A program made the translations under genes and the position numbers. From Nitrospinales bacterium (lineage in GTDB: Bacteria > Nitrospinota > Nitrospinia > Nitrospinales > VA-1), in contig OZ253496.1 in NCBI GenBank assembly GCA_965262115.1, positions 1,824,001 to 1,888,000 on the forward strand: 64,000 bases of DNA, read 5' to 3'. The notes beneath the pieces are model-generated. The model was not told the origin of the DNA and made no database searches. It saw nothing but the letters and a program-made list of their open reading frames with translations. This document shows positions 9,220-51,582 of the stretch, piece after piece; the first letter of the stretch is position 1, and each line of letters starts with the position of its first letter.

Positions 9220-9258
9220 TGTGATATCGCTTCATTTGCTTCATGCCCCGCAGGGGTA
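9220..9258 (-). repeat. ~40-bp hairpin unit (family A), intact copy; perfect empty target for the IS110 bridge RNA
   Basis: Minus strand TACCCCTGCGGGGCATGAAGCAAATGAAGCGATATCACA. Confidence 0.85.
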
Positions 9259-9259
9259 A

Positions 9260-10426
9260 AATAAAGACATCGCAAGTTATCGGTGGAGGTATTTTATCCA
9301 ATCCTTTTTCTTAAAAACCCGGTTTCTGGTTATCGTTCTGGCTATGCTGGCCGTGTACAGTTATGGATGGAAGGTGACGGAAATTGAGGTGGGGTAACTG
9401 TTCCGCGACTTCCATCTTGTCAAACCGCTTGCCAAAGAACTTGCTAACCCCGACCTGTTTACCCGCGAGAAAAAATCACAAACTGTTGAAAAAGAATTTT
9501 TCCTATCGCAAAACCAACGCGGAAATATTCCCCAGGATATTGAAGGTGCAAATCCTAAGCTGGTGTTATCCAGTCAGTCGGGCGAAATTTCCGATACCCT
9601 GACGGTTCGTGGTTTTAACCTGAAACCGCAGCAGTCGGGCATTCTCTATTGGGTCAATGCCATCGAGCAGGAGTTCCCGCTGAGAATGTTTACCACCGAT
9701 GTGTCCGGCGCGTTCCAGAAAGAGATCATCGTGCCGCCCAGCGCGCGCGGTCTGCGCCAGACCGTGAAGGCCGTGTTGAGTTGGGACGAGGGCGGTTGGC
9801 AGGTCAGCGAGACTTTGAGCCTGACCATTGAGAAGATGGTGGAAACAGTTTTTCTGGCGTTGATGGCGACTACTTTCGGCGTGCTGGTGGCACTACCTTT
9901 AAGTTTTCTCGGTGCCCGCAATCTTATGACCCGGAACCGGATGGGTACCTTTGTCTATTATGGTGTGCGAACCGGTTTGAATGTTTTGCGATCCATCGAG
10001 CCGTTGATCATGGCGATCCTGTTTGTGGTCTGGGTGGGCATTGGTCCTTTTGCCGGGGTGCTGGCATTGGGGCTGCATTCTGTCGCGGCTTTGGGGAAAT
10101 TGTTTTCGGAACAGATCGAGTGCATTGATTCCGGGCCGGTGGAGGCGATCACCGCTGTGGGTGCCAGACCGTTGCAGGTGGTTTTTTTTGGTGTTCTGCC
10201 GCAGGTGATTCTTCCATTTCTGGCGCTCAGTTTTTATCGCTGGGATATTAATGTGCGTATGTCGACCATCATAGGGTTCGTCGGGGGAGGGGGGATTGGG
10301 TTTTTGCTGCAGCAATGGATCAATCTTCTCAAATACAACGAAGCGGGGACGGCGTTACTCGCCATCGCCATTGTGGTGATTACGCTCGATACCCTGAGCG
10401 CAAAAATCCGCGCCCACGTTAAATAG
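9260..10426 (+). pseudogene. phnE: Phosphonate ABC permease PhnE, 5'-truncated, in-frame TAA at 9395-9397
   Basis: LRSIEPL, GKLFSEQIE, YRWDINVRMSTIIGFVGGGGIG; upstream same-frame TM segment broken by TAA; no phnC/phnD nearby. Confidence 0.7.
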
Positions 10427-10469
10427 ATGAATATGGCCCCCTCTTTTTCAAAGTACCCCTTGTATGTTG

Positions 10470-10685
10470 TTCATAAGGGAAATTTGTAATAGTTGTTCCT
10501 GCGAGTTCTGTGAAAAACCGGTTTTTGGTTTTCCACAAGCTCCCAGGATTTGATTCAGGGCACAATAGATCGTTTACCCCTGGGGCTTTTAAGCCCGTCC
10601 CGCAGCGCAGATCGTTGTGTCCTATTTTGATTAACCCGAACAGTTGCCTGGGACTTTGAGTCCGCATCGACAAGGTTGGGAGACC
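10470..10685 (+). ncRNA. Predicted IS110 bridge RNA (target-binding and donor-binding loops)
   Basis: LTG TTTACCCCT 10573-10581, RTG CCCGCAG 10599-10605, LDG ACAGTTGC 10640-10647, RDG ACAAG 10670-10674; each pair flanks an internal hairpin; RNA ends approximate. Confidence 0.8.
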
Positions 10686-10690
10686 AAATT

Positions 10691-11621
<931 letters not shown>

Positions 11622-11844
11622 CATTTAACACAGTTGCTGCGGGGCATGAAGGCTAATGTTGGGGACACCACAAACACCGATGGACAGAGACAAAAGATTC
11701 CCTCCCTTCATATGGAGGGACTTAGGGAGGGTTGGATTGACCGCCCGGAGTTTTGTCATCGCGAATCGCGAAGCGGCGTGGCGACCCAGGTTCTTTCATT
11801 GGGAATTGAATTAATATTGCAAGGCTGGATTGCCGCGCTCCTTT

Positions 11845-11883
11845 TACCCCTTTGGGGCATGAAGGCAAATGAAGAATTTCACA
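11845..11883 (+). repeat. Family-A unit inserted in the loop of a REP-like GATTGCCGCGCTCCTTT|CAGTCGCTCGCGATGAC hairpin
   Basis: Removing the 39 bp restores a contiguous REP-like element. Confidence 0.8.
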
Positions 11884-12108
11884 CAGTCGCTCGCGATGAC
11901 AGGAGCAGGGGTTGCTAAACCATTTTCCTGACTTCCCTTCGGGGCATGAAAGCTTTGAAGAATATCACAACTACTGGCCCCACGCTTAGTGGGCGGAGAA
12001 CCTTCGCAGATAACAGGTCACAACTTCCAGAGTAAATCCCGTCATACTCTCAATAATCGCCCCCAACCACTCGTCGATCGTGCTGGCTGAATCTGAGTCT
12101 ATCTGTGT

Positions 12109-13119
12109 CTAATCCCTGTAAGCGACTCCATGGGTTTCACCATCGGTATCGACTTTCATCGTGAGGCTGAGGTCACTGGCGGAGACGATGGCCAGTTTAT
12201 TTTCATCGCGAATGGCGACGTAGACCGTTTTCCCATCTGAGCTAATGGCTATCATATCCGGACGTTGGCCCAGTGCCGTGGTTTTTGTGATCTTGCGACT
12301 GGCTGTGTCGATCATGGCAATCTGGCCCAGTTTTCGTTGCCCAACGTAGACGGTTTTCCCGTCCGGACTGTGGACCAGCCCATGCGGTTCCCCCGGCACA
12401 TCAATGGAAGCTTCTAACGCGCCAGTGCGTGAGTTCAACAATAATAATTTATTATCTGCCGGAGCGGTGAGCCAGAACTGACCCCAGTTTTTAGTCGGTT
12501 TTATGGCCATAGCACCTTTGGCACCTTGCCGGGTTCCGGTGACTTTTTTGGATTTCACATCTACCACCGAAATATTCCCCGCCCCAGCGTTGACCACATA
12601 CAACGTGTTTCCATCGGGAGAAAATACAGCAGTGATGGCTTTCTTATCCGTCGCCATGGTGTGAACGGCTTTCTTTGAGGCGACATCGATGAAGGTGATG
12701 TTGCCCGCCCCCACGTTGCAGGAGACAGCAGTCTTACCATCGGGGGAAACAGCGACATCGTGGGCTTTGGTGTCTGTCACGATATCGGCCAAAATCTCTT
12801 TCAACACTGCGTCTATCACAGTGATGCTGTTGGTACCCAGGTTAGCGATGTAGGCCAGCTTGCCATCCGGGCTGAAGGTAACATTGTGTGCCCCGGCACC
12901 TGTGGCTATGGTCTTGACGACTTTGTTGGAACTGGTATCTATGATCTGAACATTAGCGCCTTTCATATTGGCGACCCACACTTCACCCGCCATTCCCGGC
13001 ATCGCCACCGAAAGGAACAGAACCGTAAAAATGGCAACCCCTAACCACGACTGCCGTCTTTGCTGAAACTTACTTTTTAATTTCCTGCCACTAGAATGGA
13101 TCTTTTTATCTCCGCACAT
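12109..13119 (-). CDS. Secreted YVTN/YncE-type beta-propeller protein
   Basis: Repeated (P/A)HxVxxSPDGKxxYV blades; hydrophobic signal segment; GGAGG RBS before ATG 13119. Confidence 0.85.
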   Translation of the reverse strand: MCGDKKIHSSGRKLKSKFQQRRQSWLGVAIFTVLFLSVAMPGMAGEVWVANMKGANVQIIDTSSNKVVKTIATGAGAHNVTFSPDGKLAYIANLGTNSITVIDAVLKEILADIVTDTKAHDVAVSPDGKTAVSCNVGAGNITFIDVASKKAVHTMATDKKAITAVFSPDGNTLYVVNAGAGNISVVDVKSKKVTGTRQGAKGAMAIKPTKNWGQFWLTAPADNKLLLLNSRTGALEASIDVPGEPHGLVHSPDGKTVYVGQRKLGQIAMIDTASRKITKTTALGQRPDMIAISSDGKTVYVAIRDENKLAIVSASDLSLTMKVDTDGETHGVAYRD

Positions 13120-13376
13120 ATTTGCCTCCAGAGAAAATAGATGGTGGATGAATTGCGTATCGTTTCTGTTGCGCTTAAAACTGTATTGAACACCTTTATA
13201 GTTAGAGTTGCAAGGCAAGAAATAGGATTCAAACTCTCTGATAAAGATAGAGGGGTAAAAGCGTACCCTTATTGAATTTATTGGGGGAAAAGGTTCTTCA
13301 TGCGCTCAAACCGTGTGGGTGGCTTGACGGGCAATTACCCACTACCACAGCCACTTGGCTGCCTGCGGCTCACCGG

Positions 13377-14069
13377 TTAGTGCGTGTTCAGATTCTGGCC
13401 GTCTCTTAATTTGTTGAGGACAGCGGTCATATGGTCGTAACCCATCTGATTTTCGAGGGCGGAGAAGGTCTCGCGGGCGCGGGTATACCAAAGGATGGCT
13501 TCGGGAATATTTTCTTCTTTCTTCCAGTAGATGCGCCCCATATTCTCGAACAGGACTGCCTGAATCTGATGCGGAGGAACATCTTGCACCAGTTCCACGC
13601 CTTTTTTATACCAGTCCCCGGCTGGAGCATGCTCGCCACGCTCCATGAACAAGTCACCAGCACGGTTCATGGCCCGGGCCTCACCCAATGGATTATTGAT
13701 TTTATGGTGGTAGTTCATGGCGAGGATGTATTGCACCTCGGCTTCCTGAATTCTTGTGCGAAACTTATACAGATCGCCTAAAGACTCATAAATCTTCGCG
13801 GCTTTTTTCAGTTGGTTTTCTTTTTCATAGGCGGTGATGGCCTTGCCATAGTTCTCGATGGCGTGGTCAAACTCGTGGTAGAAAAAATTTTCCGATGCCT
13901 GTTGCAGGTATCGCCCGGCCTCGTCTTTGGCATCTATCGGGGTGGTGATGGACACGGACTCATCTCTTTGCTTTTTCCCGTGCGGCAGGAGCCAAACAGC
14001 AAACCCCATCGTCAACGTCACCACAACAATGAGGAAATATTTCAGCGCTGGTTTGAGGAAAGATTCCAT
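13377..14069 (-). CDS. Membrane-anchored TPR-like protein
   Basis: N-terminal TM followed by A..Y..LG..Y helical repeats. Confidence 0.75.
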   Translation of the reverse strand: MESFLKPALKYFLIVVVTLTMGFAVWLLPHGKKQRDESVSITTPIDAKDEAGRYLQQASENFFYHEFDHAIENYGKAITAYEKENQLKKAAKIYESLGDLYKFRTRIQEAEVQYILAMNYHHKINNPLGEARAMNRAGDLFMERGEHAPAGDWYKKGVELVQDVPPHQIQAVLFENMGRIYWKKEENIPEAILWYTRARETFSALENQMGYDHMTAVLNKLRDGQNLNTH

Positions 14070-14168
14070 TAAAGATACCTGATGAATGGGGAAGCAAGTT
14101 TCATCAGGTTAACATGAAATAGGGCTAGATTGACCCGGGAAGAATATCAGGCCTGCGAGGGTCCCCTG

Positions 14169-14519
14169 CTAATTCCCTGCTATGGGTTGCAGCAGAACTT
14201 CATGAATTTTTTGGTCAAAGGTTTCGGCGTCGAACGGCTTGACCAGATAATGACAAATACCCAGTTTCGACGCGTCCTCCATTTTTTCTTTACAATCTTC
14301 CATAGTAATCATGATGAAAGGAATGTCTTTCAGGTCTGGGTCGGTCTGCATTCCACAAAATAATTCCAGTCCGTTCAAATTAGGCATGTACCGGTCAGAA
14401 ATAATCAGTTGCATTTTGGCTGAACGCAATGTGGCCAGAGCTTGCTCACCGTCCTCAGCCTCAAAAATATTTTTGACCTCTAACCGCCCTAAATGATGCC
14501 GGATGATCCTCCTCGCAAA
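14169..14519 (-). pseudogene. CheY-like receiver domain remnant lacking its N-terminus
   Basis: EAEDGEQAL..IISDRYMPNLNGLEL..IPFIMIT..YLVKPF; first beta-strand/acidic pair not found. Confidence 0.65.
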
Positions 14520-14807
14520 GGAAAATATTGGTAACGCGATATTTCCAGGGGGCTAACTGATGATTTGTTAGTGTTTTACATACATTTTTTTATTGTTTTT
14601 TTGGACTACTTTTGAGGTTTATTTTGACTATTGGAGATTGCACCGGTTGAGTATAGAATACATCCGCCTTTCATCCGGAGTGTTGTTCCGCGCTTTGTTT
14701 GGAAACCTCCAGCTTGTTTGGAGGTCATCGCAACCGAAAACAATCGACTCGCTTTCCTGAAAAATGTCCTGTCCCGAGACAAACTTCATCAGAGGGGAAT
14801 TAAATTC

Positions 14808-17339
14808 GTGTTGAGTTTATTTGCCAACGTCTATAAGAAATGGGTGATCGAAAAACCCCTCGCCAGCCTGATATTGGTTTTGCTGGTGGTGGGTTATTTT
14901 TCTTATCATATCCCAAACTTCAAGCTCGATGCCTCCGCTGAATCCCTGGTTCTGGAAAACGATGACTCCCTGCAATATTACCGGACGATCAGCAAATCTT
15001 ATGGTTCTGATGATTTCCTAATCATCACTTACGCACCTTTCAAGGATTTGATGTCCGATGCAGTGCTGGCAGATTTAAAATCGATGAGCGATGAGCTTGC
15101 CAAACTGGACCGGGTTCACTCTACAGACAACATCCTCAATGTTCCCCTGCTGAACAGCCCACGTGTTGAAATATCCAAACTGGCTACCGATATCCGCACT
15201 TTGGAAACTGCCGGTGTAGACCGGGAAATGGCCCGCAAAGAATTTCTGGAAAGTCCCATTTACAAAAACCTATTATTAAGTCCGGATGGGAAGGTCACGA
15301 TTATCCGTGTCAATTTCGAACGCGACGAAAAATACTTTTCCCTGATGTATCGGCGCAATGACCTACGCGACAAAAAAAAGGAGTCTGGCCTCGACAAGGA
15401 AGAAGAGGCCTTATACATCAAAACCCGTCAAGAGTTCCGCGATTATCACGCCCAGGTGCTGGACAGTGAAGACCGGCTCATAAGATCCGTTCGGGACATC
15501 ATGGACCGGCACCGCGATCAGGCAGAGATGTTTCTTGGCGGGATCCCTATGATCACTACGGATATGATCGGCTTCATCGAACACGACCTGAAAACTTTCG
15601 GTCTGGGTGTCATAGCCTTCCTTATCCTGATGCTCAGCCTGTTTTTTAAGAAAAAACGATGGGTTGTATTGCCTATGAGTTGTTGCCTCATAGCCATCTT
15701 GGTGATGGTAGGCTTTTTGGGATTAATGGATTGGAGGGTCACGGTGATTTCTTCTAATTTCATTTCTATTCTGCTTATCATCACCATGTCCCTGACCGTA
15801 CACTTGATCGTGAGGTATCAGGGTTTAAACGATAACAACCCGGGCCAAAGCCAGAAAGAGCTGGTATGGCAGACGGTTCGTCTCATGGTTCAGCCCTGTT
15901 TTTATACTGCCATCACAACCATCGTCGCTTTTTGTTCCCTCCTGGTGAGCGGCATTCGCCCGGTGATCGATTTCGGCTGGATCATGACCAGCGGAATTTC
16001 ACTGGCCTTTATCTTAATTTTTATATTTTTTCCGGCGGCGCTGGTTTTATTGCCTCCTGAGCCTCCCGGGTCCGGCAAGGACAGAACAAAAAGTTTCACT
16101 CTGTCTATTGCGGCATTTTCAAATCGCAACCGCAATGCAATTCTTTTTGGATCGTTGTTACTGGCAATGGTTAGCGCTATCGGGATTTCCAAACTGGAAG
16201 TGGAAAACCGTTTCATCGACCATTTTAAAAGCAACACCGAAATCTATCGGGGAATGGAAGTGATCGACCAGCAGTTGGGAGGCACCACGCCGCTCGACAT
16301 TGTTATGAATCCAGACCAGAAGTATTTTGATTATCTCAAAGAAGCCAATGAGAAGAATAGAGAGGAAGAAGACATTTTTGATGGTGATCCTTTCGCCGAA
16401 GCATCGGAGGAAGTGGAAAACAATTATTGGTTCAACTCCAATATGCTCGACCGGGTAGAAAAAATTCATGACTACCTGGAAAGCCTGCCGGAGGTGGGCA
16501 AAGTCCAATCCATATCCACTCTGGTCAAAGTCTTCACGCAACTGGACAAGGGCAGGAAGCCAGACGATTATGATCTGGCGCTGATCCGCAAACTCATGCC
16601 TGATAATGTTAAGGATTCTCTGGTCAACCCTTACCTGTCTCCAGATGCAAACCAGATTCATATCAATATGAGGTTGATCGAATCTGACCCCACCCTGAGA
16701 CGTTCTCAACTGATAGAAAAAATCCGCACCCATCTTGTTGAAGAATTAAAGTTCGATCCCAAGACCATCCATTTCACAGGGATGGTGGTGCTTTATAACA
16801 ATATGCTGCAGAGCCTGTATCGGTCACAGATACTCACCATCGGCGTGGTTTTTTTCGCCATCATGTTCATGTTCATGATTTTGTTCAGAAGTGTGTCATT
16901 GGCGTTGATCGGCATCGTTCCCAACCTTCTTGCCGCAGGAACGGTATTGAGCCTCATGGGCTGGCTGGGCATTCCCCTGGACATGATGACAATTACTATC
17001 GCGGCCATCACGTTAGGAATAGCAGTAGACAATACCATTCATTACATCCACCGGTTTCAAAGGGAATTTAAGGTTGACCAGAATTATCTGGCCGCGATGG
17101 ACCGGTGCCACGGCAGCATCGGCAAAGCCATGTACTACACCTCCGTGACCATTACCCTTGGTTTTTCTATCCTGGCGCTTTCGGAGTTCATGCCCACCAT
17201 CTATTTCGGCCTGCTGACCGGCACAGCGATGGTGGTGGCCCTGATCGGCGCTCTCACCCTGCTGCCACTTTTGATTGTTGTCTTCCGCCCCCTCGGCTCC
17301 TCGGCGGGAGGGCCAATGAGCATGGGCTCGTTTGTTTAG
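14808..17339 (+). CDS. MMPL/RND-superfamily transporter
   Basis: Two 1+5 TM repeats with large loops; GIAVDNTIH motif; GTG start after GAGGGG. Confidence 0.88.
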   Translation: MLSLFANVYKKWVIEKPLASLILVLLVVGYFSYHIPNFKLDASAESLVLENDDSLQYYRTISKSYGSDDFLIITYAPFKDLMSDAVLADLKSMSDELAKLDRVHSTDNILNVPLLNSPRVEISKLATDIRTLETAGVDREMARKEFLESPIYKNLLLSPDGKVTIIRVNFERDEKYFSLMYRRNDLRDKKKESGLDKEEEALYIKTRQEFRDYHAQVLDSEDRLIRSVRDIMDRHRDQAEMFLGGIPMITTDMIGFIEHDLKTFGLGVIAFLILMLSLFFKKKRWVVLPMSCCLIAILVMVGFLGLMDWRVTVISSNFISILLIITMSLTVHLIVRYQGLNDNNPGQSQKELVWQTVRLMVQPCFYTAITTIVAFCSLLVSGIRPVIDFGWIMTSGISLAFILIFIFFPAALVLLPPEPPGSGKDRTKSFTLSIAAFSNRNRNAILFGSLLLAMVSAIGISKLEVENRFIDHFKSNTEIYRGMEVIDQQLGGTTPLDIVMNPDQKYFDYLKEANEKNREEEDIFDGDPFAEASEEVENNYWFNSNMLDRVEKIHDYLESLPEVGKVQSISTLVKVFTQLDKGRKPDDYDLALIRKLMPDNVKDSLVNPYLSPDANQIHINMRLIESDPTLRRSQLIEKIRTHLVEELKFDPKTIHFTGMVVLYNNMLQSLYRSQILTIGVVFFAIMFMFMILFRSVSLALIGIVPNLLAAGTVLSLMGWLGIPLDMMTITIAAITLGIAVDNTIHYIHRFQREFKVDQNYLAAMDRCHGSIGKAMYYTSVTITLGFSILALSEFMPTIYFGLLTGTAMVVALIGALTLLPLLIVVFRPLGSSAGGPMSMGSFV

Positions 17340-17644
17340 ACGAGATGACTTTTCTCTAGCTAAACAAAGTTATTGCCAGCTACCCCCACGGTTAGTGGCC
17401 GGGCGACGCCCGGTGGAAATTAGCAACCGCTAGGCGTGGGGGCTGATCCCCCTCCAAAAACTTCATGCCTCGGAGGGGTACTTCGTAAAAGGGGGATTCA
17501 TGGACCCCTCTTTTTTAAAGACTCAAGCCCGATAGTGTGAGGGCTTGATGGCTGGGGTGATTTACAACCTCTCATGCAATATGTGGGCTTGCAGAACGCT
17601 ACATCAGTAGTTGGAAGGGGATCATCCTCAGCTGGGTACTATGT

Positions 17645-18097
17645 TCACGTCTTTAGCACAATATCCCTAACATCATCGACTGACCAATTAGAAGCTCCCG
17701 GTAGCTCTTGGGCAAGTAAAATAAATATCAACATATAAAGATGGCTGCGCAAATACTCTCCTTCGTTGTTCCCAAATACTTGAGCCTCTTCAAATAAAAT
17801 TTTTATATATTCGAGAATTTTTAAGAAATCAAAATTCAGAAATTGATTCGATTCAATCTCGCTAGAATCAAAGATGGCTTTAGCCTTGTCTTCACAAGAC
17901 AAACCATATCTTATAGATAAATTATGGAATCTAGTTATACTTTCCGATCCAAGCTCAGATTCTACAAGTTCTTGACGAATTTCAACGGCATTTCTAAGAG
18001 AATGTACCCCTCTTCTAGTTTCCCATGTCTTTTCAAATTCCATCAGATTTTCGGCAAACCCATCAAATGTCTTATCCAATTTCATAATGTTCTCCAA
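17645..18097 (-). CDS. Hypothetical protein (AT-rich)
   Basis: 150-aa ORF directly downstream of 18110-18544; no recognised motif. Confidence 0.55.
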   Translation of the reverse strand: MENIMKLDKTFDGFAENLMEFEKTWETRRGVHSLRNAVEIRQELVESELGSESITRFHNLSIRYGLSCEDKAKAIFDSSEIESNQFLNFDFLKILEYIKILFEEAQVFGNNEGEYLRSHLYMLIFILLAQELPGASNWSVDDVRDIVLKT

Positions 18098-18109
18098 ATA
18101 CGGTATCTT

Positions 18110-18544: not shown

Positions 18545-18956
18545 GTGGATCCCCCATAGCCAAGATTATAGTTCTTTCAAGAGTATAACAGTATATTTAC
18601 GTGTATCAATGCTAAAAATTAAGTATTTAGACTATTTATTGCTATTTATGTGGAAGATGTTCCCAAACTGGTACTAAAGTGCGGTATTACCAGGTAAGTG
18701 AGGCGAGGCCTGCCCCTTCGATGTGACTTGAGGGGGATTTTATTAAAAGCAACCCCCCTGGTTACCCCTCCGGAGCACGAAGATTAAGGAAAAATATCAC
18801 GACCGCTCAGCATGACAATTCAACCCCCCTCAGTCCCCCCTTATCATGGGGGGAGGCTTTTTTCACTGCGTCCAGCGTCACGCTGGTAGCCACATGCCTT
18901 ATGAGGTGAAAAACAAACTTAACTGATTATCTTTTACCCAAGGGTTAGTGCGGTTA

Positions 18957-20006: not shown

Positions 20007-20010
20007 AAGT

Positions 20011-29084: not shown

Positions 29085-29196
29085 TCGGCAAAAAGACAAA
29101 TCACCCCAGCCCTTGTGATATTTCTTCCTCAACTTTCATGCCCGGTACGGGTACTTTGTAAAAGAGGGGTTCATTGAAGCTCCCCCTTCTACGAAG

Positions 29197-29405
29197 GAGA
29201 CCTTTGCATAACCCAAGATTCTTCGTTGCAATAGCTCCTCAGAATGACAAAATAGCCTTTTATTGTCATGCTGAGCTAGTGATACTCGACCTTTGCCTTC
29301 TTGAGCCTGTTATATCCCCTTCCATTAACTTCATGCCCCGGAGGGGTAGGAGGGGTGTGTCGAAGCATCTCGCTTTTCTGCTTTATAGACTTACGCAAAG
29401 GTCTC
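29197..29405. mobile_element. MITE with GAGACCTTTGC(A/G)TAA TIRs carrying an 80-bp nested family-A insertion (29278-29357)
   Basis: Identical to 50754-50882 except for the 80-bp insert and one TIR base. Confidence 0.85.
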
Positions 29406-30550: not shown

Positions 30551-31011
30551 TGCGACGACAAGCCCCAAGGCGTGACGGTTTATGAAGAATTTGAAATTAA
30601 CCACTAGGCGTGGGGCCAATGTGCACGTGATATTCTTCCTCAGCCTTCGTGCCCCGGAGGGGTAATAACTTTTGCTGGCGAGCAATAGTTCATCTTGGCT
30701 TGTTATATTTTTCCGTAGGTGGATGTCCTCCTCAACTATTAAGTTCCTCTCCCCTCCGAGGGACTCAAGCCTGATCGTCTGAAGGCTTGATGGCAAGGCA
30801 TAGCCGCAGTGAGGGGGGAATTGGACTACCCCCTCTTTCTTAAAGTACCCCTTCGGGGCACGAAGTTAATGTTGGGGATATCACGTTATACCTGCGGGGC
30901 ATGATCCTTCGAGAGCCTCAGGATGACCAGACAGACTCAGGATGACAAGTGAAGAGGATATCACACGCTCACGAAGGCTAAGCAAGAGGCCATCACAGCT
31001 ACGGACAAATA

Positions 31012-38157: not shown

Positions 38158-38669
38158 GAGACCTTTGCATACGTCGAAAAAACGTAAAGTCGAGATTACC
38201 CGTTCCGGGCACGAAAGCTTAAGTGAAACATCACGTCTTCACTGCGTTCAGAATGACAAGAAACGCCAGCTTGTCATCCTTGAGAAGCCAAAGGCGACGA
38301 AGACGTGATATTTTTCCTTAACCTTCGTGAGCCTGTGATATTCCCTCCGCTAAATTCATGCCCGGAACGGGTAGAAGGGGTATGTGATGTCCTCTTCCTT
38401 AACCTTCATGCCCCGAAGGGGTAATCCGGTTGATCTTCCCCTGAATTGGTGGACACATCGAAAAGTGTGGATAATACACTTTTGGAGGTGTTTTTATGGG
38501 AACCAAACGCAGGAGTTTCAGTAAAGAATTCAAGTTAGAAGCGGTTCGATTGGTTATTGAAGTAGGCGATAGCATTGCCCGGGTGTCCCGGGATCTGGGA
38601 ATCCGTTCTGCCCTTCTGGGTCGCTGGAAACAGGAGTATGAGGAGGATCAGGTGTTATGTAAAGGTCTC
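38158..38669. mobile_element. Composite MITE (same TIR family) holding REP-like hairpins, four family-A units and an IS3 left-end remnant
   Basis: GAGACCTTTGCATA at 38158, TTATGTAAAGGTCTC ending at 38669. Confidence 0.75.
38431..38652 (+). mobile_element. IS3-family left end and truncated OrfA
   Basis: TGATCTTCCCC..GGACAC end; MGTKRRSFSKEFKLEAVRLV...ARVSRDLGI...LGRW HTH. Confidence 0.75.
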
Positions 38670-40336: not shown

Positions 40337-40405
40337 TCTTTATAGTATTCCTAAAAAAGAAACGTGTCAACAGGAATTCGATAACAGAAATATAGGTTTC
40401 TTCTC

Positions 40406-40735: not shown

Positions 40736-40932
40736 TAGGCGGAGTACCTCCGCTGGTAATTTGCAATTTCTTTATTTCGTGGGCAAACGTTTTCTCGGCC
40801 CAACGAGTCATTGCGAGTTGGCCCCACGCCGAGTGGGAATTTATTACTTGCATTTTAGGGCTGAAATATGAAATGATCAACCATCCCATTCAAGCAATTG
40901 CGGGAAATCCAAGTAAAGGCGGTATTTGTTTT

Positions 40933-42872: not shown

Positions 42873-42876
42873 TCGA

Positions 42877-43533: not shown

Positions 43534-43565
43534 ACATCACAAGAGAAAGTGAGAATCAAGAGGTC

Positions 43566-45269
43566 ATGAAAATATCCAAGGAATTGCTAGAGCAAATGGA
43601 AAATGATGACAAGGAGGAGCAGGAAGAGCTAACCGCAACCCAGATCGCCGCCTATGAAGAGATGGAGGGCTATTTTAACGAGAGTCTTGGCCGCTTTAAA
43701 GCTTCGCAGATCATCATAGGAAAGGTGATCGCCATTTCCAACGGACTGGCCACCATCGATGTCGGCTTTAAATCAGAAGGCATGGTCTCGCTTTCCGAAT
43801 TCCCTGAAAACGGCAAGAACCTGCAGCTTGATGAAGAGGTTGTGGTCTTTCTTGAAAAGGTTGAAGACAACGATGGCAATGTGGTCTTGTCCAAAGAAAA
43901 AGCCAATAAAATTAAAATCTGGGATGATCTGGTGCAAACTTATGAAGCGGATGAAACCATTCAGGGTACGGTGGTGGCCAAAGCCAAGGGCGGATTAACC
44001 GTCGATATCGGACTCAAAGCCTTCCTGCCTGGTTCCCAGATCGACCTTCGCCCGATTCGCAATCTGGAAAAACTGCTGGGCGAAAAATTCGACATGAAAA
44101 TCATCAAGATGAATAAAAAACGCGGCAATATTGTCTTGTCGCGAAGAATTCTCCTTGAAGAACAACGCAAACAGATTCGCGAAGGCACTCTGGAGAAAAT
44201 GAGTGAAGGCAGCCTCATTGAAGGTATCGTTAAAAATATCACCGAATACGGAGTGTTCATCGACCTGGGCGGAATTGACGGTCTGCTTCATATCACCGAT
44301 ATGTCATGGGGCCGGGTCAACCATCCTTCCGAAATGTTTTCCATTGGGGACAAAGCCACGGTCATGGTTCTCAAGTACGATAAAGAAAAAGAACGCGTCT
44401 CGCTCGGTCTCAAACAAACCAGTGCCGACCCATGGGTGGATGTCGATTCCAAATACCCGGTCAGCACACAAATCAAGGGACGGGTAGTCAGCATCACCGA
44501 CTATGGCGTGTTTGTAGAACTCGAAAAAGGCATTGAAGGGCTGGTCCACATTTCTGAAATGAGTTGGAGCCGTCATGTCAAACACCCGAGCAAAATGGTT
44601 TCGATCGGGGATGAAGTGGAAGCCATTGTGCTGACCCTCGATAAAGATAAAAAACGGATTTCGCTCGGCATGAAACAAATCGAGCCCAACCCGTGGGAAA
44701 AAATTGAAGAAAAATATCCCATTGGTTCTGAAGTTGAGGGCACGGTTCGCAACCTGACCGACTTTGGCGCCTTCGTGGAACTGGAAGATGGCGTGGATGG
44801 ACTGATCCATATTTCCGATTTGAGTTGGAAAAAAATCAAACATCCTTCTGAAATCCTGAGGAAAAAAGACAGAGTCACATCAGCCGTGCTCAGCATCGAC
44901 AAGGAAAACTGCCGCATCTCTCTTGGGGTTAAACAGTTGCAACCCGACCCCTGGGATGATATCGCAGCCAACTATCCTATCGGCACCAAAGTCACCGGCA
45001 AGATCATCAAGGTGACAGGATTCGGAGCGTTCGCGGAATTTGGCGACGGATTAGAAGGCCTGATCCATGTTTCGCAACTCAGTTCTGAAAAGATTACCGA
45101 TCCTGAATCTGCGGTAAAGGTGGACGATGATATCAAGGCAAAAGTGATCAAAGTGGATACCTCTAACAAAAAGATCGCTTTAAGCATTAAAGCCCATATG
45201 GAAAACCTCGACATTTCGCAGATCGAAAAAGAACAGGTAGACCTGGAAGGCTTTAAAGAAGAAGAGTAA
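43566..45269 (+). CDS. rpsA: 30S ribosomal protein S1
   Basis: Six S1 repeats; follows cmk. Confidence 0.96.
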   Translation: MKISKELLEQMENDDKEEQEELTATQIAAYEEMEGYFNESLGRFKASQIIIGKVIAISNGLATIDVGFKSEGMVSLSEFPENGKNLQLDEEVVVFLEKVEDNDGNVVLSKEKANKIKIWDDLVQTYEADETIQGTVVAKAKGGLTVDIGLKAFLPGSQIDLRPIRNLEKLLGEKFDMKIIKMNKKRGNIVLSRRILLEEQRKQIREGTLEKMSEGSLIEGIVKNITEYGVFIDLGGIDGLLHITDMSWGRVNHPSEMFSIGDKATVMVLKYDKEKERVSLGLKQTSADPWVDVDSKYPVSTQIKGRVVSITDYGVFVELEKGIEGLVHISEMSWSRHVKHPSKMVSIGDEVEAIVLTLDKDKKRISLGMKQIEPNPWEKIEEKYPIGSEVEGTVRNLTDFGAFVELEDGVDGLIHISDLSWKKIKHPSEILRKKDRVTSAVLSIDKENCRISLGVKQLQPDPWDDIAANYPIGTKVTGKIIKVTGFGAFAEFGDGLEGLIHVSQLSSEKITDPESAVKVDDDIKAKVIKVDTSNKKIALSIKAHMENLDISQIEKEQVDLEGFKEEE

Positions 45270-45280
45270 AACCTGAAAAA

Positions 45281-45304
45281 TTCTGGACCCGAAAGGGTCC
45301 AGAA
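45281..45304 (+). terminator. Stem-loop after rpsA
   Basis: TTCTGGACCC-GAAA-GGGTCCAGAA; weak U-tract. Confidence 0.5.
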
Positions 45305-45306
45305 TC

Positions 45307-46212
45307 TTGAACATGGAAACTACAATCCAACCTAAACGATCTTTCTTCAAATCTTTTATGCGGTTTGCGGTGGGACTTTTTGTCTTGATGATATTGATAA
45401 GCATCGGCTCTGCCCTGTTGCCGGATCGTTGGAAATCCCCTTCCGGCGAAATTGCCCTGATCCACGTTCAGGGAGTGCTGATGAATTCCCGGGACATTGT
45501 CCGCCAGCTCTCCGACTATCGCCACAATCCGAAAGTGCGGGGCATCATCCTGCGCATTGATTCTCCAGGCGGAGCGGTTGCACCGGCACAGGAGATTTAC
45601 AGCGAAATCATGAAACTCCGGGCCGATCATAAAACGGTTTATGCCTCCATGGGAACGGTGGCGGCCTCGGGTGGATATTATATTGCCTGCGCGGCCGATT
45701 ACGTTTTGGCTAATCCCGGTACCCTGACGGGGAGCATATCTGCCGTGATGGCTTTTAATAACATTGAGGAACTGACTAAAAAAATTGGCATTAAACCCAA
45801 TATCATTAAGAGCGGTAAGTTCAAAGACATGGGTTCCCCCCTGCGAGCCATGAGTCCGGAGGAACAAAAACTTTTGCAAAATGTCGTGGACGATGTGCAC
45901 CAGCAATTTGTGCAGGCTATCGCGAAAGGCCGAAACCTGCCCCTTGCCCAGGTTCAAAAGATTGCTGATGGAAGGATCATGACTGGCCAACAGGCTCTAA
46001 AGCTTAAACTGATTGATGAGATGGGCGGACTTGAAAAAACCATCGAACTGCTGGCAAAAAAGCTCGGTATCAAAGTAAGGCCTAAAGTCATTGAACAAAA
46101 AGAAAAAATTCCTTTCCTCGACTGGCTCCTGCAGAGTTCGCTTTCCAGTGGACTGGCCGAAACCTTAATGCCATCCTCCTACCCCCGCTTGCAATATCTC
46201 TGGTTTCCATGA
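45307..46212 (+). CDS. sppA: Signal peptide peptidase SppA (S49)
   Basis: RIDSPGG, AASGGYY, TLTGSI, KSGKFKD. Confidence 0.93.
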   Translation: MNMETTIQPKRSFFKSFMRFAVGLFVLMILISIGSALLPDRWKSPSGEIALIHVQGVLMNSRDIVRQLSDYRHNPKVRGIILRIDSPGGAVAPAQEIYSEIMKLRADHKTVYASMGTVAASGGYYIACAADYVLANPGTLTGSISAVMAFNNIEELTKKIGIKPNIIKSGKFKDMGSPLRAMSPEEQKLLQNVVDDVHQQFVQAIAKGRNLPLAQVQKIADGRIMTGQQALKLKLIDEMGGLEKTIELLAKKLGIKVRPKVIEQKEKIPFLDWLLQSSLSSGLAETLMPSSYPRLQYLWFP

Positions 46213-46455
46213 AAAAAAAATGGGTTATGGCGCCTTGTGCCACACAGAAAAACTAATACACCCTCCCCCAATCAGGTCATGCGACCTCGTTAATCCAGAC
46301 TCCTGAAAGGGACTTTTCAAGCGCAAAAGCGGAGCCTTAAAACCGGGTAAACCCATTAAAATATTGGGCTTGACTTAATTCCACCTAATGCTATACTTCC
46401 GCTAATTCTGATTTCAAAAGCATTTAAAATGTTTACCGGTGGGGGAGACTTTTTA

Positions 46456-46758
46456 ATGACTAAAGCAGAGCTTGTTGAAAGAGTGGCCAACCAGATCAAC
46501 CTGACGAAGAAACAGACCGAGGTCGTGGTGAATACTGTTTTTTCTAGCATTACTGGATCGCTGGCAGAAGGGAAAAAAGTCGAATTGAGAGGGTTTGGAA
46601 GTTTCCGAATCCGGCAAAGAAATGCTAGGGTGGGACGCAATCCCAAGTCTGGACAAAAAGTGGAGGTCCCCTCTAAAAAAGTGCCTTTTTTCAAGGCCGG
46701 AAAAGAGTTGAGGGAACTGGTGGACAAGCACGAAAAAGCTCAAGAGGTAGAGCCCTAA
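46456..46758 (+). CDS. ihfB: Integration host factor beta / HU family
   Basis: MTKAEL, VELRGFGSF, GRNPKSG, FKAGKEL; rpsA-sppA-ihfB context. Confidence 0.85.
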   Translation: MTKAELVERVANQINLTKKQTEVVVNTVFSSITGSLAEGKKVELRGFGSFRIRQRNARVGRNPKSGQKVEVPSKKVPFFKAGKELRELVDKHEKAQEVEP

Positions 46759-46960
46759 AAGGGATTTTAAAGCTAAATCCCCCACCTCATTCGTAAAAAA
46801 CTGGGGCCACTGGATCCATTGGTGCCCACACCGCACCCCTTCCCCAGCTGAAAACAATTAGTCTTTAGTTTTCAATAACTTCATTTCAAGAATACGCGAG
46901 TGAATGTTCTGTTACCCGGTCGGGTTTCAACAGAAAGAGTTACATTCGACCTATAAATTT

Positions 46961-48031
46961 ATGTCTGGAAGCACGTTCGGAAAACTTTTTAAAATTACCA
47001 CCTGGGGCGAGTCTCATGGTGATGGCGTCGGGGTTGTCGTGGAGGGTTGCCCGGCCGGATTGCCCCTCAAGGAATCTGATATCCAAAAAGATCTGGACCG
47101 ACGACGAACCGGACAAAGTAAAGTCACCACCACCCGCAAGGAAGGTGACAAAATCCAAATCATGTCCGGTGTCTTTAAGGGCAAAACCACCGGCACGCCT
47201 ATTTCCATGCGCGTCGACAACAAAGATGCCGATTCCTCAAAATATGAATTGATCAAACACCTGTACCGTCCCGGTCACGCGGACTACACCTATGATGCAA
47301 AATACGGCTTTCGCGATTACCGGGGTGGAGGACGGTCCAGCGCCCGGGAAACTGTAGGCAGAGTGGCCGCCGGGGCCATCGCTAAAAAACTTTTGGCCCG
47401 CGATAAAATCACCATCACCGGGTTCACCCGACAAATCGGGCACCACACAGCATCAACCGTAAACTTCAAGGAAATAGAAAAAAATATCGTGCGTTGTCCA
47501 GATGCAAAAACCGCCGAAAAAATGGTGGACGCTATCATGCAGGCGCGAAAAAACGGCGACTCGTTGGGAGGCATCGTCGAAGTGGTTGCCCAGGGAGTGC
47601 CAGCCGGACTGGGAGAACCTGTCTTCGACAGGCTGGATGCCGACTTGGCCAAGGCGGTCATGAGCATCCCTGCGGTAAAAGGAATGGAAATTGGCGCAGG
47701 ATTCCAAACCGCCACCATGACCGGTTCAGAGTGCAATGATGTTTTTGTCACGAAAAACAAAAAGGTGATGACCAAAACCAATAACGCCGGGGGGATTCTC
47801 GGTGGCATTTCCAATGGCATGGATATCGTTGTCAAATTGGTGGTGAAACCGACTTCATCCATCAACAAGACGCAAGAAACCGTTACCCAAAAAGGAAAAA
47901 AATCTGAAATCCGCGTTGAAGGCCGACACGATCCCTGCGTCGCTCCAAGAGCCGTTCCTATTGCCGAGGCCATGGTCGCCCTGACCCTGATTGACCATCT
48001 GCTGAGAAACAAGACTTCCCGGCTGACCTGA
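46961..48031 (+). CDS. aroC: Chorismate synthase
   Basis: GESHG, RPGHAD, RSSARET, GRHDPC. Confidence 0.97.
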
Positions 48032-48042
48032 CCCGAACCCCT

Positions 48043-48834
48043 ATGAGAGTTGGATTCGTTCAAAACAAACCTATTTTTGCAGGGGTTCAGGAAAATCTTG
48101 ACAGGATTGAAGAACTTCTTAAAGGTCAGAGTGCTGACCTGTTTGTCCTGCCCGAACTTTTTGCCACCGGCTACCAGTTCAAAGATATGGAAGAGTCGCG
48201 TAGCCTGGCGGAACTAGTTCCAGGAGGACTCACCAGCAGCACGCTGACCGCCATCGCCAAAAAAACCAATGCCACCATCATCGCCGGCCTTGCGGAGATC
48301 GAAGACGACCAAATCTACAATTCCGCCGTTATCACGGGACCGGATGGATATATCGGAAAGTATCGCAAGCTCCATCTCTTTGATACGGAAAAGGACTGCT
48401 TCCATCAGGGCAACCTGCCGCTTAAGGTTTTTGATATCGCCGGTGCAAAAGTGGGGGTCATGATTTGTTTCGACTGGCGCTTTCCCGAAACCGCCCGAAC
48501 TCTGGCACTTCTGGGAGCGGACCTGATCGCACATCCCTCCAATATGGTGCTGACCCACTGTCCGCAGGCCATGATCACCCGTTGTCTGGAGAACCGTGTC
48601 TTTGCTGTCACCGCCGATCGAGTGGGAATGGAAGACCGTTTAGATGAAGGACCTCTTAACTTCATGGGCCAGAGTCAGGTGATAGACCCCAATGGCAATA
48701 TTTTGGTCCGGGCCTCGATGACCGATGAAGAGGTACATGTGGTCCAGTTAGACCTCAGTTTGGCCCGCGACAAATTCCTCAACCCCCGCAACCACATTTT
48801 CAACGACCGCCGCACAGACCTCTACCCCCCTTAA
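48043..48834 (+). CDS. Nitrilase-superfamily C-N hydrolase
   Basis: LPEL, YRKLHL, ICFDWRFPE triad motifs. Confidence 0.9.
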   Translation: MRVGFVQNKPIFAGVQENLDRIEELLKGQSADLFVLPELFATGYQFKDMEESRSLAELVPGGLTSSTLTAIAKKTNATIIAGLAEIEDDQIYNSAVITGPDGYIGKYRKLHLFDTEKDCFHQGNLPLKVFDIAGAKVGVMICFDWRFPETARTLALLGADLIAHPSNMVLTHCPQAMITRCLENRVFAVTADRVGMEDRLDEGPLNFMGQSQVIDPNGNILVRASMTDEEVHVVQLDLSLARDKFLNPRNHIFNDRRTDLYPP

Positions 48835-48960
48835 CAGATAACAATGGCCCCGTTTTGAAATAACCTCACCATAGGTTAAAATAGGGCTACAGTTTAATTG
48901 AAAAATATTACACATCATTCATCAGCATTCACTGCTTGCTGATTATTTGAGAGGAATAGA

Positions 48961-49392
48961 ATGGGTAACGAAAAATCACGGTTTTTGAAAAGAGATGATG
49001 GAACTATTTACGATTCTCTGACCAGCGTCACCTGGATGGCCAACGACTCACGGTTGGATCTGGAAAAAGAGGTCTCTTACTCGGAAACGGAAGAATATGT
49101 AAAATCAATGAACGAAAAAAAAGTGGGCGGCTATGCGGACTGGCGTCTCCCTTCCATCCATGAAGCATCCTCCATTTTTGACAAGGAAAAGTTGAACAAA
49201 GATTTCAAGGGCGCCGACATACATCTCGACTCTGTGTTTCCTGCCGGTGCGGGCAACTGCACATGGACTTCAGCCACTCGCGGCAAGGAAGCACAAATCA
49301 TGTTTTACATGAACGGCTGTGCCTACTGGTACAGAAAGGACGACCAAACCATTTCCCACGGGGCACGCCTCGTCCGCCGCGACAACAACTAG
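48961..49392 (+). CDS. Lcl / DUF1566 domain protein
   Basis: DGTIYD..T..TW, GGYADWRLPSI.E, WTS, RLVR. Confidence 0.85.
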   Translation: MGNEKSRFLKRDDGTIYDSLTSVTWMANDSRLDLEKEVSYSETEEYVKSMNEKKVGGYADWRLPSIHEASSIFDKEKLNKDFKGADIHLDSVFPAGAGNCTWTSATRGKEAQIMFYMNGCAYWYRKDDQTISHGARLVRRDNN

Positions 49393-49637
49393 GCGTTGGG
49401 CCAACTAGCAATAAGGTGTTTGACCGACAAACTTCTTCTCGGCTTGAACAGGTTTAACTCCCTCTTTCTAAAAGAGGGCTGGGGTGATTGACCACCAGAG
49501 GGTGTCATGCTGAGCCTGTCGAAGCATCTATTTGTGATATTTGACCAGTGCCTTCATGCCCCCGTAGAAGTATAACGAGCTCTTACTATTTACATCCCTC
49601 CCTTCATAGGGAGGGACTGAGGGAGGGTTGGCTTTTT

Positions 49638-50699
49638 ATGACCCGTAAAAAGAAAAAAAGGTTCTTTCTATGTTTCTTGGCAGTTTTGATACTTCTAAAC
49701 TGCACCAGCCGCGATAGCCTGGCAAAATGCCCCACAAGAATGGGTTCTATTTTTACCCCGGACCATTTTTCCGTGATCACGCGCAGGGGCTCGGTCACCA
49801 AATTCCCAGAAAATACTATTCCAGCTTTTCAGGAGGCGTTGAACGTGGATGGCGCCAACTCTCTCGAAGTCGATCTGTCTCTGACCAAGGATAGAAAAAT
49901 TGTTCTCTGGCACGATTGGGATCCGAACAGTCCAATGGCGCTGATCAGGCAGGAGAAGAGCGAGTCAGTTGAAAAACTCAAGCCTTCCGGTCCCTCGTTA
50001 GGGGAGTCAAGATGGAGAAAAAAAGTCAGCAAACTTACTTTGGTCGAATTTATAGAACACTACGGATATGAGGATAAAATCACCAACACCAAATCGGATG
50101 TTAAGATTCCAACCCTGCAAGCTTTTATGGAATGGGCCACACAGCAGGATAAACTCAAGCTGGTGTTATTGAAATTAAAAATTCCAGCGAACGAAAGCCA
50201 TTTAGCCCCGATCATGCTCAAAAAAATAAGGCTGGTTATTGGCAGCATTTATCCAGCCCCAAAATTTCAATTCATATTGTCAACGCCGCATAAAGAAGTT
50301 TTAAACCTGATCAGAAATCGATTTGATGAATTTTTATTTTCTTATGACCGGGAAATCCCCCCTGTTGGGATCATAAATTATCATGGCTTCACATCTGTCC
50401 CCACTGCCATGGATTTTAAAAACAGCTATGCGGGTATCGGGCTCCCCATCCATGCTGGCCTTCCTGACTCCTCAACCCCGGACCCATGGCTGACCTACAA
50501 ATATGTCTTAACTCTGGACTTTAAAATTCGTGATGGCTACAAAAAAAGTACTTCCAATTATATTAAAATTATCAGCCGGACCTTTAATGACGAGAAAAAA
50601 ATGAGATGCCTGATCAATCTGGGGGTCGATGGAATTGTGACGGACAAGCCTAAAATGCTACGCAGAATCGCATTGGATATGGGAAAAATTTTAGATTGA
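49638..50699 (+). CDS. Glycerophosphodiester phosphodiesterase family protein
   Basis: PENTIPAF, EVDLSLTKD..VLWHD, IPTL, GVDGIVTD; first His of HRG reads Arg. Confidence 0.8.
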   Translation: MTRKKKKRFFLCFLAVLILLNCTSRDSLAKCPTRMGSIFTPDHFSVITRRGSVTKFPENTIPAFQEALNVDGANSLEVDLSLTKDRKIVLWHDWDPNSPMALIRQEKSESVEKLKPSGPSLGESRWRKKVSKLTLVEFIEHYGYEDKITNTKSDVKIPTLQAFMEWATQQDKLKLVLLKLKIPANESHLAPIMLKKIRLVIGSIYPAPKFQFILSTPHKEVLNLIRNRFDEFLFSYDREIPPVGIINYHGFTSVPTAMDFKNSYAGIGLPIHAGLPDSSTPDPWLTYKYVLTLDFKIRDGYKKSTSNYIKIISRTFNDEKKMRCLINLGVDGIVTDKPKMLRRIALDMGKILD

Positions 50700-50740
50700 T
50701 ACATGTTTAAAATCAGAAGCCTTAATGATTGGCTTTGGGA

Positions 50741-51430
50741 TCACTCTTCGAGGGAGAGCTTTGCATAACCCAAGATTCTTCGTTGCAATAGCTCCTCAGA
50801 ATGACAAAATAGCCTTTTATTGTCATGCTGAGCTTGTCGAAGCATCTCGCTTTTCTGCTTTATAGACTTACGCAAAGGTCTCGCTTCGAGGGTCATGTAC
50901 TTTGGATTGTCGAACATAAGTCCGAAGGCGGGGACTTTTTTGGGCTGGCGGGTCAGGTTGCGGTATATCTCGTGAAATGATTCAGTATCCAACGAATCAT
51001 CCATCAACCCGACCAGTTGCTGCGGGGTGATGGCATTCATCGAATTTTCCGAAAACAGCGAGGTTCCAATTCCGGACCAATGCGAAGAGACAAAACCCTG
51101 ACGCACCAAATGGGTAGTGCCGAGCGAGTTTCTCCGGCTTTGGCAAGGATGTGCCGGGCAATGTAGGCGGGGACGCAACGGCCAATGGCTACTATCCGCG
51201 ATGGATTCTCCGCCGGGTAAACAAAAAGTCCCACCACCGTGTTGCCCATCTCAGCAAATTCTTTGCGGATGTTTTTTAAATCTTTTTCATAGCGTTTCGA
51301 GACCCAGGCTTCCAGTTTTACCGGCTTATGGGAAATGGAAACACAGTTTTTTTCTGCATACAAGATACCCGGAGTAACCGTCAATTCTATTAAAATTAGA
51401 AAAATACTAATTCGGCGAGCCACCGTTAGC
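50741..51430 (-). pseudogene. Frameshifted paralog of 51583-52155 with a MITE in its 3' end
   Basis: IGRCVPAYIARH in one frame, LVRQGFVSSHWSGIGT..F..P.FGL in another (shift near 51130); start uncertain. Confidence 0.7.
50754..50882. mobile_element. 129-bp MITE (empty allele of 29197-29405)
   Basis: TIRs GAGAGCTTTGCATAA / TTACGCAAAGGTCTC; flanks TCTTCGAGG and GCTTCGAGG (8/9 direct repeat). Confidence 0.85.
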
Positions 51431-51582
51431 AGATGGCAAGAACTCGTTATACCCCTCCCGGGCATGAAAGCTGAGGAAAGATTATCACAAGCCGAAATTA
51501 CGTTTGCCTGCCGGACATGATATTTATTCCTTAGCCTTCGTGCCCCGAAGGGGTAAAAAGCTATTGCTAGTTGGCCTCACGG

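Follow-up and report, generated by a model that had tools for sequence, protein, structure and literature searches.

The question raised by a 64,000-nt stretch of the genome of a marine, Nitrospina-type Nitrospinales bacterium (GCA_965262115.1, contig OZ253496.1, positions 1,824,001-1,888,000 of the forward strand; hereafter the window) is whether a hairpin unit of about 40 nt, which recurs between its genes, is a mobile element in its own right, and by what means so small a unit could be moved. Throughout, G000 denotes the studied genome (2.68 Mb), other G-numbers denote relatives and L-numbers excised loci; unit positions (u1 onwards) are counted on the strand reading TACCCC, and positions such as e-4 from the unit end. 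The initial annotation of the window had described 14 full and two degenerate copies, and all of them carry the TACCCC-type unit. A profile built from the 14 full window copies gave 401 genomic matches of at least 12 bits and none in the reversed genome, which served as the control; 249 of the 401 cover the full model, among them 115 of 39 nt, 70 of 41 nt and 55 of 40 nt. The estimate of about 20 copies in the window corresponds to 18 matches with the refined profile, the outer member of a nested pair at 29278-29357 and a remnant at about 30887. The fixed ends and variable middle were borne out, as conservation jumps from background to 97-100% at the TAC and drops after CAC-R. The proposed consensus stands as an overall pattern, except that stem position 5/9 is C:G or G:C and the last base is A, G or T. 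The statement that all copies are intergenic holds in the window, but genome-wide 21 of 406 matches lie within mechanically called open reading frames (ORFs) of at least 150 aa. Most of these ORFs look spurious, about eight of the unit copies lie within an IS3-type element, and the overlap at 49533 involves an upstream GTG only, the first ATG being 30 codons further.

The mobility of the unit is documented by filled and empty alleles. The filled MITE (miniature inverted-repeat transposable element) at 29197-29405, with terminal inverted repeats (TIRs) of the type GAGA[CG]CTTTGCATAA, which presumably resemble IS1106/IS5 ends, becomes the empty allele at 50754-50882, save one TIR base, when the segment 29278-29357 is removed, as had been claimed. 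Precise empty sites, exact to the base, are also present at orthologous loci of relatives, for which the comparison covered 1.6 of the 2.86 Mb of G013 (about 94% identical to G000) and 0.4 Mb from each of G007 and G019. An orthologous interval between G000 and G013 was obtained for 229 of 500 units. Seven intervals are precise empties (one with decayed flanks) and five are empty within 1 nt; 22 are filled in both genomes, two of these differing by a nested unit; six belong to other cases, and in 189 the whole host repeat differs. Additional exact filled/empty sites are found at G000:1650512, 2004491 and 2328682, at G019:160845 and at G013:2512584, some apparent empties of these further comparisons having been excluded as paralogous matches. 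The site orthologous to the unit at 29114-29153 (minus strand), a G5:C9 stem variant lying in a CCCCTCTTT..AAAGAGGGG hairpin, is empty in G019, plus one extra G. Among the matches listed in assembled contigs of sequencing runs, no clean unit-sized skip was seen.

Insertion leaves no target-site duplication, in agreement with the earlier claim, since a 3-5-nt duplication was found in 0 of 99 target families and matches of 1-2 nt between the flanks are within the shuffled range; the claim has to be amended in that nearby target bases are often altered. The ends TACCC and CAC-R are not complementary, which confirms that TIRs are lacking, and neither unit end repeats its flank, so that no recombination core is visible. 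The preference for hairpin repeats is pronounced: a repeated context surrounds 183 of 240 unit sites, as against 766 of 3000 intergenic positions drawn at random, and the folding of the empty sites is stronger (median -5.2 vs -3.3 kcal/mol), with the position of the unit within the host hairpin being variable. In G000 the units occupy 83 target families, 49 of them singletons, the largest being the MITE copies (24 copies). The unit also inserts into itself. When units were removed recursively, 265 were eliminated first, followed by 24 host units that those had split; the insertion points in units were the loop (25), position 20 (3) and the unit-unit junction (21), and insertion on the opposite strand was seen as well. 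Part of the copy number stems from the amplification of host repeats already carrying the unit. The data thus agree with a non-autonomous mobile unit that has fixed ends, no TIRs, no target-site duplication and a preference for hairpins.

The range of the unit is narrow. The exact pattern is present in 24 of 61 genomes, namely G000, 20 of the 22 members of its genus and three others of its family, and in none of 24 genomes from three other families of the order. A species-wide scan of prokaryotes (13 of 64 parts) gave 123 loci, and the first 80, which were listed, are all titled Nitrospinota. The unit was found solely within Nitrospinota and is confined to part of one family. It occurs moreover in three loci of a viral collection, one of which adjoins a phage-like capsid gene; at L352:3001-3038 the unit occupies the gap that separates the major capsid gene from the gene next to it, in a head cluster (portal, protease, capsid) resembling that of a phage or gene transfer agent. 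The initial annotation did not recognise a named family, and Rfam had no match in window 9000-52000. No description of this family was listed in the literature searched, supplements lying outside the search, and the string 'Nitrospin' is absent from a 2026 preprint on non-coding space (10.64898/2026.10.21.760802). It is confirmed that the unit is real, mobile and lineage-restricted, and that it belongs with the very small non-autonomous hairpin elements.

How exact ends are kept without terminal repeats may be understood from the covariation within 335 distinct units, in which the counts are inflated by related copies. The stem pair u5:u9 swaps between C:G, G:C and T:A, the second stem pair is A.C in 326 of 335 (G.T on the opposite strand), and 305 units have a TNC loop, read as GNA on the opposite strand. 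GNA triloops are especially stable in DNA. Since A.C and TNC read on the GNA strand as a G.T wobble and a GNA triloop, the folded, active strand is inferred to be 5'-YGTGATAT-(pyrimidine-rich loop)-TTCR-TGCCCS-GNA-SGGGTA-3'. A second stem appears to connect the termini: u15 and the last base form a Watson-Crick pair in 92% of the units (T:A 188, C:G 105, A:T 14 of 335) vs 48% in shuffled sets, with a maximum of 57%, and u16 is paired with the penultimate base in 95%. Beyond an invariant T.T, a fourth pair, u18:e-4, is possible in 296 of 335 units on the GNA strand vs 55 on the TACCCC strand. Judged by this covariation, pairs would form between the terminal YG and CR and between the terminal A and T, and the same pattern was found in 136 distinct metagenome units. 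The predicted structure, which is supported by covariation, is a dumbbell of two abutting stems in which a single helix holds the 5' and 3' ends next to each other. Because such a fold sets both ends side by side, it would account for exact ends without terminal repeats.

The best mechanistic clue is the rewriting of the flanks. Target bases 3-4 beyond the unit are changed from GG to CT in 30 of 40 filled hosts vs 0 of 836 empty ones, as counted in G000, parts of G013, G007 and G019, and metagenome loci (loci of the species collection were excluded for possible overlap), the copies within a subfamily not being independent. In hosts with a unit in a unit loop, nnCTCA has taken the place of nnGGCA in the arm in 20 of 29 cases, as against 0 of 639 loops that hold no unit; in the CCAC..GTGG host, TGGGG has become TGCTn in 10 of 11 filled copies vs 0 of 197; and GCTAC is found in 6 of 13 position-20 hosts vs 1 of 578. 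The change was seen directly at three unique orthologous loci (G000:1074704, 390859 and 2004419), it recurs with about ten different inner units and in two host families, and it leaves the first two flank bases as the target's own. Near flanks are unaltered at the majority of the other orthologous sites, and inspection of the unit by eye showed no template for CT. Units nearest in sequence share near flanks far more than random pairs do (R5 3.36 vs 1.82 matches and L4 2.06 vs 1.25), even where their distal flanks are unrelated, and Mantel tests were positive for L4 and R5, not for distal flanks. Some subfamilies occupy unrelated sites, such as the GAAAACTGAGG type with its four different flanks. 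The variable middle does not appear to act as a DNA guide for the flanks, as position-wise mutual information was not above the shuffled maximum; of four tests of the longest middle-flank match, two gave p values of 0.02 and 0.04, which is at most marginal.

The reading that we favour, with about even confidence in its being right, is that the non-autonomous unit moves as single-stranded DNA and that an HUH/Y1-type nuclease-ligase supplied in trans cuts and joins the single strands. One strand would fold into the dumbbell and thereby bring both unit ends together; an enzyme acting in trans, likely of the HUH/Y1 type, would then cut and rejoin single strands at the paired ends, the presumed intermediate being a single-stranded circle, with the HUH chemistry equally presumed. 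At insertion, the target bases 3-5 beyond the unit would likely be overwritten in a short step of strand exchange or repair, and this overwriting would explain the like targets of one subfamily. Several observations weigh against this scheme. PF01797, the Y1 family, was not found in G000, G007 or G013, the near-complete unit-rich genomes, and 15 of 16 Y1 loci in relatives are without a unit, the other having a weak partial match. No circle was observed, and the boundary lies 5' of the paired Y, which differs from TnpAREP, cutting within the paired dinucleotide (C|T), and from IS608, cutting 3' of the paired bases. The second stem, of 2-4 bp, does not emerge from folding-energy predictions, single units fold no better than shuffles, and the covariation of that stem is counted over related copies. 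There is no strand bias with replication or transcription, the orientation to neighbouring genes being 124 vs 118, and the flank logos of the 99 families show a weak WWn|nSYnC preference and no fixed target tetranucleotide. Finally, the filled/empty pairs were read without an outgroup, which leaves gain vs loss unpolarised. As to the enzyme, a mover can be missing today, because a 95-nt repeat resembling IS200/IS605 elements differs between G000 and G013, neither of which has PF01797.

The strongest rival, rather unlikely in our estimation, is a homing-like copying in which short-homology gene conversion transfers the unit from a filled repeat to empty copies of the same repeat, GIY-YIG or DUF559 nucleases making the nicks and the flanks being co-converted. 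The similarity of near flanks among nearest-sequence units, with Mantel signals restricted to L4 and R5, and the rewritten bases at the three unique loci would be expected from co-conversion, and small GIY-YIG genes are present in G000, G007, G013 and G019, where they travel with repeats. However, one subfamily, the GAAAACTGAGG type, sits at unrelated targets, 49 of the 83 target families are singletons, and the first two flank bases are retained while bases 3-4 change from GG to CT with some ten inner units in two host families. Nor does passive conversion account for the conserved ends and their pairing. Small GIY-YIG genes, flanked by CGTC-type repeats, occur in 28 of 61 genomes including unit-free ones, yet were not found in the unit-bearing G004, G012 and G031, and DUF559 genes, flanked by other repeats, were not found in G007 or G004. 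Both were rejected as movers.

The search for a mover bears on the next alternative. A Y1/RAYT or GIY-YIG gene flanked by units, which the initial annotation had suggested looking for, was not found, and Y1 genes are present in 15 of 61 relatives with no correlation with unit load. TnpB was found in 0 of 5 unit-rich genomes, as were Rep_trans, TIGR-Tas and IS91 Y2, the control of this last search being silent too, so that its zero carries no information; a regular expression for the HUH motif returned nothing from 2831 ORFs. No unfamiliar protein recurs among the 23 ORFs with a unit on either side or among 630 ORFs taken from 260 loci that bear units, and no gene other than IS110 was seen between unit halves. 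None of reverse transcriptase (RT), IS110, integron-like integrase and DUF559 is shared by all three of G000, G007 and G013. That the unit-rich genomes have no known transposase in common would suit a non-HUH host enzyme, housekeeping or lineage-specific, be it a XerC/D-like or integron-like recombinase or a structure-specific nuclease with a ligase, which excises and reinserts a dumbbell circle. In folded single-stranded recombination sites the junction lies inside a helix with conserved mismatches; the fold of the unit likewise sets the junction inside an 8-bp helix with conserved mismatches, and single-strand exchange resolved by replication could rewrite flanks. We nevertheless consider a host enzyme quite improbable, as the boundary does not coincide with G|TT, recombinases of the XerC/D type occur almost universally whereas only part of one family has the unit, and neither G007 nor G013 yielded the integron-like integrase of G000, which 31 of 61 genomes, many of them unit-free, possess.

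A spread through RNA and reverse transcription is very unlikely: the unit is indeed very short, structured and self-nesting, with a UUCG-like loop as its commonest variant on the TACCCC strand, but the RT, found in 8 of 23 genomes, is broken in G000 and turned up in neither G007 nor G019, the units show no bias in their orientation relative to neighbouring genes, and the free middle base of the TNC loop suits a DNA GNA triloop rather than UUCG. Equally remote is the view that larger repeats or MITEs amplify the unit as one of their passive constituents, the empties being deletions; the 24 MITE copies and the 189 of 229 comparisons in which the whole host repeat differs speak for it, but it is largely refuted by the precise empty alleles, which lie at unique loci without direct repeats, as well as by the 83 target families in one genome and by insertion of the unit in its own loop, at position 20 and on the opposite strand.

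Compared with known systems, the unit differs from a MITE by its lack of terminal inverted repeats and target-site duplication. The small dispersed repeats (SDR1-8) of Nostoc, which Elhai and colleagues reportedly described in Genome Res in 2008 (18:1484), are said to be 21-27 nt long, to nest in themselves and to have been attributed to RNA-mediated spread. As far as this description goes, the unit is like them in being very small and self-nesting, with a conserved structure, no identified mover and a narrow taxonomic range, and unlike them in its length of 39-41 nt and its DNA-type GNA loop. Repetitive extragenic palindromic (REP) sequences and REPINs, mobilised by TnpAREP (RAYT), are similarly intergenic imperfect hairpins of 20-40 nt with hundreds of copies, according to the reports (PMC8266576, PMC3479197, PMC3116915), and those sources also parallel the strand-specific conserved mismatch (here A.C/G.T) and the role as target of an IS110 element. 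The four bases at the 5' foot, the last two of which pair with a dinucleotide, and the single-strand specificity recall the TnpAREP substrate (PMC8266576, PMC3479197). In contrast to REPs, the unit is without a GTAG or CGTC tag, its foot being TTCR with a variable last base, and no RAYT gene is flanked by it or present in G000, G007 or G013. It moves singly with exact ends, whereas excision of REP singlets was not seen in PMC3116915, and a cut in the paired dinucleotide, as PMC3479197 describes, would need the last base to equal the left flank base, which is found in 24 of 99 cases, the background level. The terminal-only palindrome-associated transposable elements (PATEs) of Haloquadratum, which PMC3119063 presents as 52-bp core deletions of HqIRS46 and ISHwa23, resemble the unit in having no inverted repeats, no target-site duplication and one near-terminal palindrome, and further in strain-specific insertions, nesting among mobile elements and mobility where intact transposase genes are scarce (PMC3119063). 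Unlike these, the unit is shorter, has no fixed 4-5-nt target motif and no related IS200/IS605 element that could be found, its hairpin is flush with the element end, and it rewrites flanks. The unit thus works like REPs, PATEs and SDRs, but by their defining features it is neither a REP nor a PATE. Two of its features, the end-joining fold and the flank rewriting, could not be matched in the known systems compared. We entertain, tentatively and with more doubt than belief, a categorically new kind of transposition, in which a 40-nt replicator would use a dumbbell single-stranded circle in place of terminal repeats and an unrecognised target-rewriting enzyme, within an ecosystem of enzyme-less hairpins to which a family of about 98 nt would also belong, and with escape variants driven by IS110.

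The relation to IS110 is that of a parasite to its host. PF01548 occurs in 24 places of G000, and a score of 225 bits against NF033542 (cut-off 140) identifies the protein as an IS110 DEDD transposase. All 24 inspected matches end in the right half of a unit and 23 also start at a left half; one element is truncated, and one site is only half unit-like. The core is CT at both ends, and the long left end carries TACCCCT. When the logic of left and right target guides of the IS621-type bridge-RNA elements (PMC11208160) was applied to 26 left ends, the right guide was CCCGAAG in 22, whose targets are TTC, and CCCGCAG in 2, whose targets are TGC. The resident element thus resembles the IS621 type in its CT cores, its long left end with guides and its guide-target covariation, and differs from the type, so far as that source describes it, in that its target is a mobile unit and its Nitrospinota relatives are retargeted to other hairpin repeats. 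Related IS110s in G027, G041, G047, G050, G052 and G056 have other predicted guides, which match other hairpin repeats; in L326, L328, L329, L330, L331, L332 and L336 the guides are retargeted to CCCCCT..AAAGGGGG and CGTC-type repeats. These elements may form a small natural set of bridge-RNA reprogramming.

The initial annotation had overlooked that the window copy of IS110 interrupts another unit. The element lies in the unit loop at 10461-11638 on the plus strand, between the left part of the unit at 10454-10460, a TACCCCT ending in the CT core, and the right part at 11639-11672, with the second CT core at 11637-11638; its transposase is broken by a stop after residue 177 and by frameshifts. 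The predicted target-binding loop of the bridge RNA (10575-10605, plus strand) comprises the left guide TACCCCT at 10575-10581 and the right guide CCCGCAG at 10599-10605, which are complementary to the TGC-loop target of this very copy. Intact units with the targeted TTC loop number 24 of 265 in G000 vs 113 of 235 in G013, 10 of 22 in G007 and 8 of 38 in G019, and the G5:C9 variant, to which the guide does not match, numbers 68 of 265 in G000 vs 25 of 235 in G013. This depletion suggests an escape from IS110, the copies being non-independent owing to MITE amplification. Since IS110 was not found in G007 and is broken in G013, both of which are unit-rich, it is not the mover; it parasitises the unit and does not move it. 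No IS110 circle joint was found among the matches listed, which are from assembled contigs only. At L325 (G000:C1:2144609-2145034) the left end of an IS110 is present twice, as though the element had entered another copy at its non-coding end, and at L392:1857-3301 an IS1111-type element of the IS110 family, with subterminal inverted repeats, lies in a CGTC-type repeat beside a unit.

The spread of REP-like repeats and of the smallest mobile repeats is an open question of long standing, raised for REPs in PMC8266576, and CGTC repeats are presented without a known transposase in PMC3733652. Besides exact filled/empty alleles, the unit offers an end-pairing rule that can be tested and, in its rewritten flanks, a chemical footprint, all in an oligo-sized substrate of 40 nt. 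If the mover is new, it would be a compact single-strand insertion enzyme that leaves no scar. The IS110 clade retargeted among hairpin repeats, with the targeted variant depleted, shows in nature how a bridge RNA can shape its target.

In the window, strands are given for units as the strand reading TACCCC, the structured strand being the opposite one. The nested pair at 29278-29357 (minus) consists of an outer 39-nt unit (29278-29307 and 29349-29357), whose arm is changed from GGGGCA to GGCTCA, and an inner 41-nt unit at 29308-29348 in its loop. The 120-nt stack at 38304-38423 (minus) consists of a unit at 38383-38423 in tandem with a host unit (38304-38333 and 38374-38382), which is rewritten to GGCTCA and holds a unit at 38334-38373 in its loop. 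Two full units lie in CGTC-type repeats, one in the hairpin at 11845-11883 (plus) and one at an AGAT|TCTTC site at 38197-38235 (plus). Further full units are found at 9220-9258 (minus, 39 nt), 18763-18801 (plus), 30846-30885 (plus, followed by the remnant at about 30887-30905) and 51450-51489 (plus), and two others, at 30626-30664 and 51516-51555 (both minus), lie within repeats of the family of about 98 nt described below. The unit at 11932-11969 (plus) has a decayed start and that at 49533-49572 (minus) a decayed hairpin, while degenerate copies are located at 1415-1448 (plus) and 17447-17480 (minus).

Several other repeat families surround the unit. A second family of 98+/-1 nt has a CCAC-TMGSC-GTGG hairpin, the anchors GCAAT, GCCGAG, AAAG and ATTGC, and highly variable spacers; a second hairpin of three interchangeable types then follows. 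It gave 385 matches, 167 of them near full length, and none in the reversed control, and it shows orthologous indels, tandem arrays, copies with an inverted middle and a covarying pair 7:15. This family hosts 56 of 240 unit sites and has no known mover; its window copies are at 56175-56272 (minus), 40739-40836 (minus), 30601 (plus) and 51589 (minus). The repeat of about 95 nt mentioned above has two hairpins (CCCCGYYGCAAGCGG.. and CCCACTNGTGGG) and about a dozen copies; those at G000:C1:1724131, 1921790 and 2209965 are absent at the three orthologous G013 sites, and TTGAA adjoins two of the three. It looks like an IS200/IS605 PATE, though no Y1 transposase was found. The MITE with GAGA[CG]CTTTGCATAA ends, which has 161 end matches in the genome and a further window position at 38669 besides the two alleles described, carries two CGTC-type repeats and often units, and its end also borders an IS3-type element.

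Nuclease and recombinase genes associated with repeats were also encountered. Of the nine DUF559 matches in G000, most have CCCTCCC..GGGAGGG-type hairpins on either side, and two small GIY-YIG genes lie between CGTC-type repeats; together these loci (G000:C1:377385, 735444, 1582297, 660936, 2140509 and 1034378) look like REPtron-like units with non-Y1 nucleases. At L041, a RAYT-like Y1 gene of G031 lies between classical GTAG-tagged REPs unrelated to the unit. At L048:1117-1950 (G000:C1:2164564-2165397), a tyrosine recombinase resembling integron integrases stands beside a methyltransferase-like gene and is lost in some genomes. Finally, window positions 1569-2933 (minus) encode a leucine-rich-repeat protein with RI-type, eukaryote-like repeats, as is common in host-associated bacteria.

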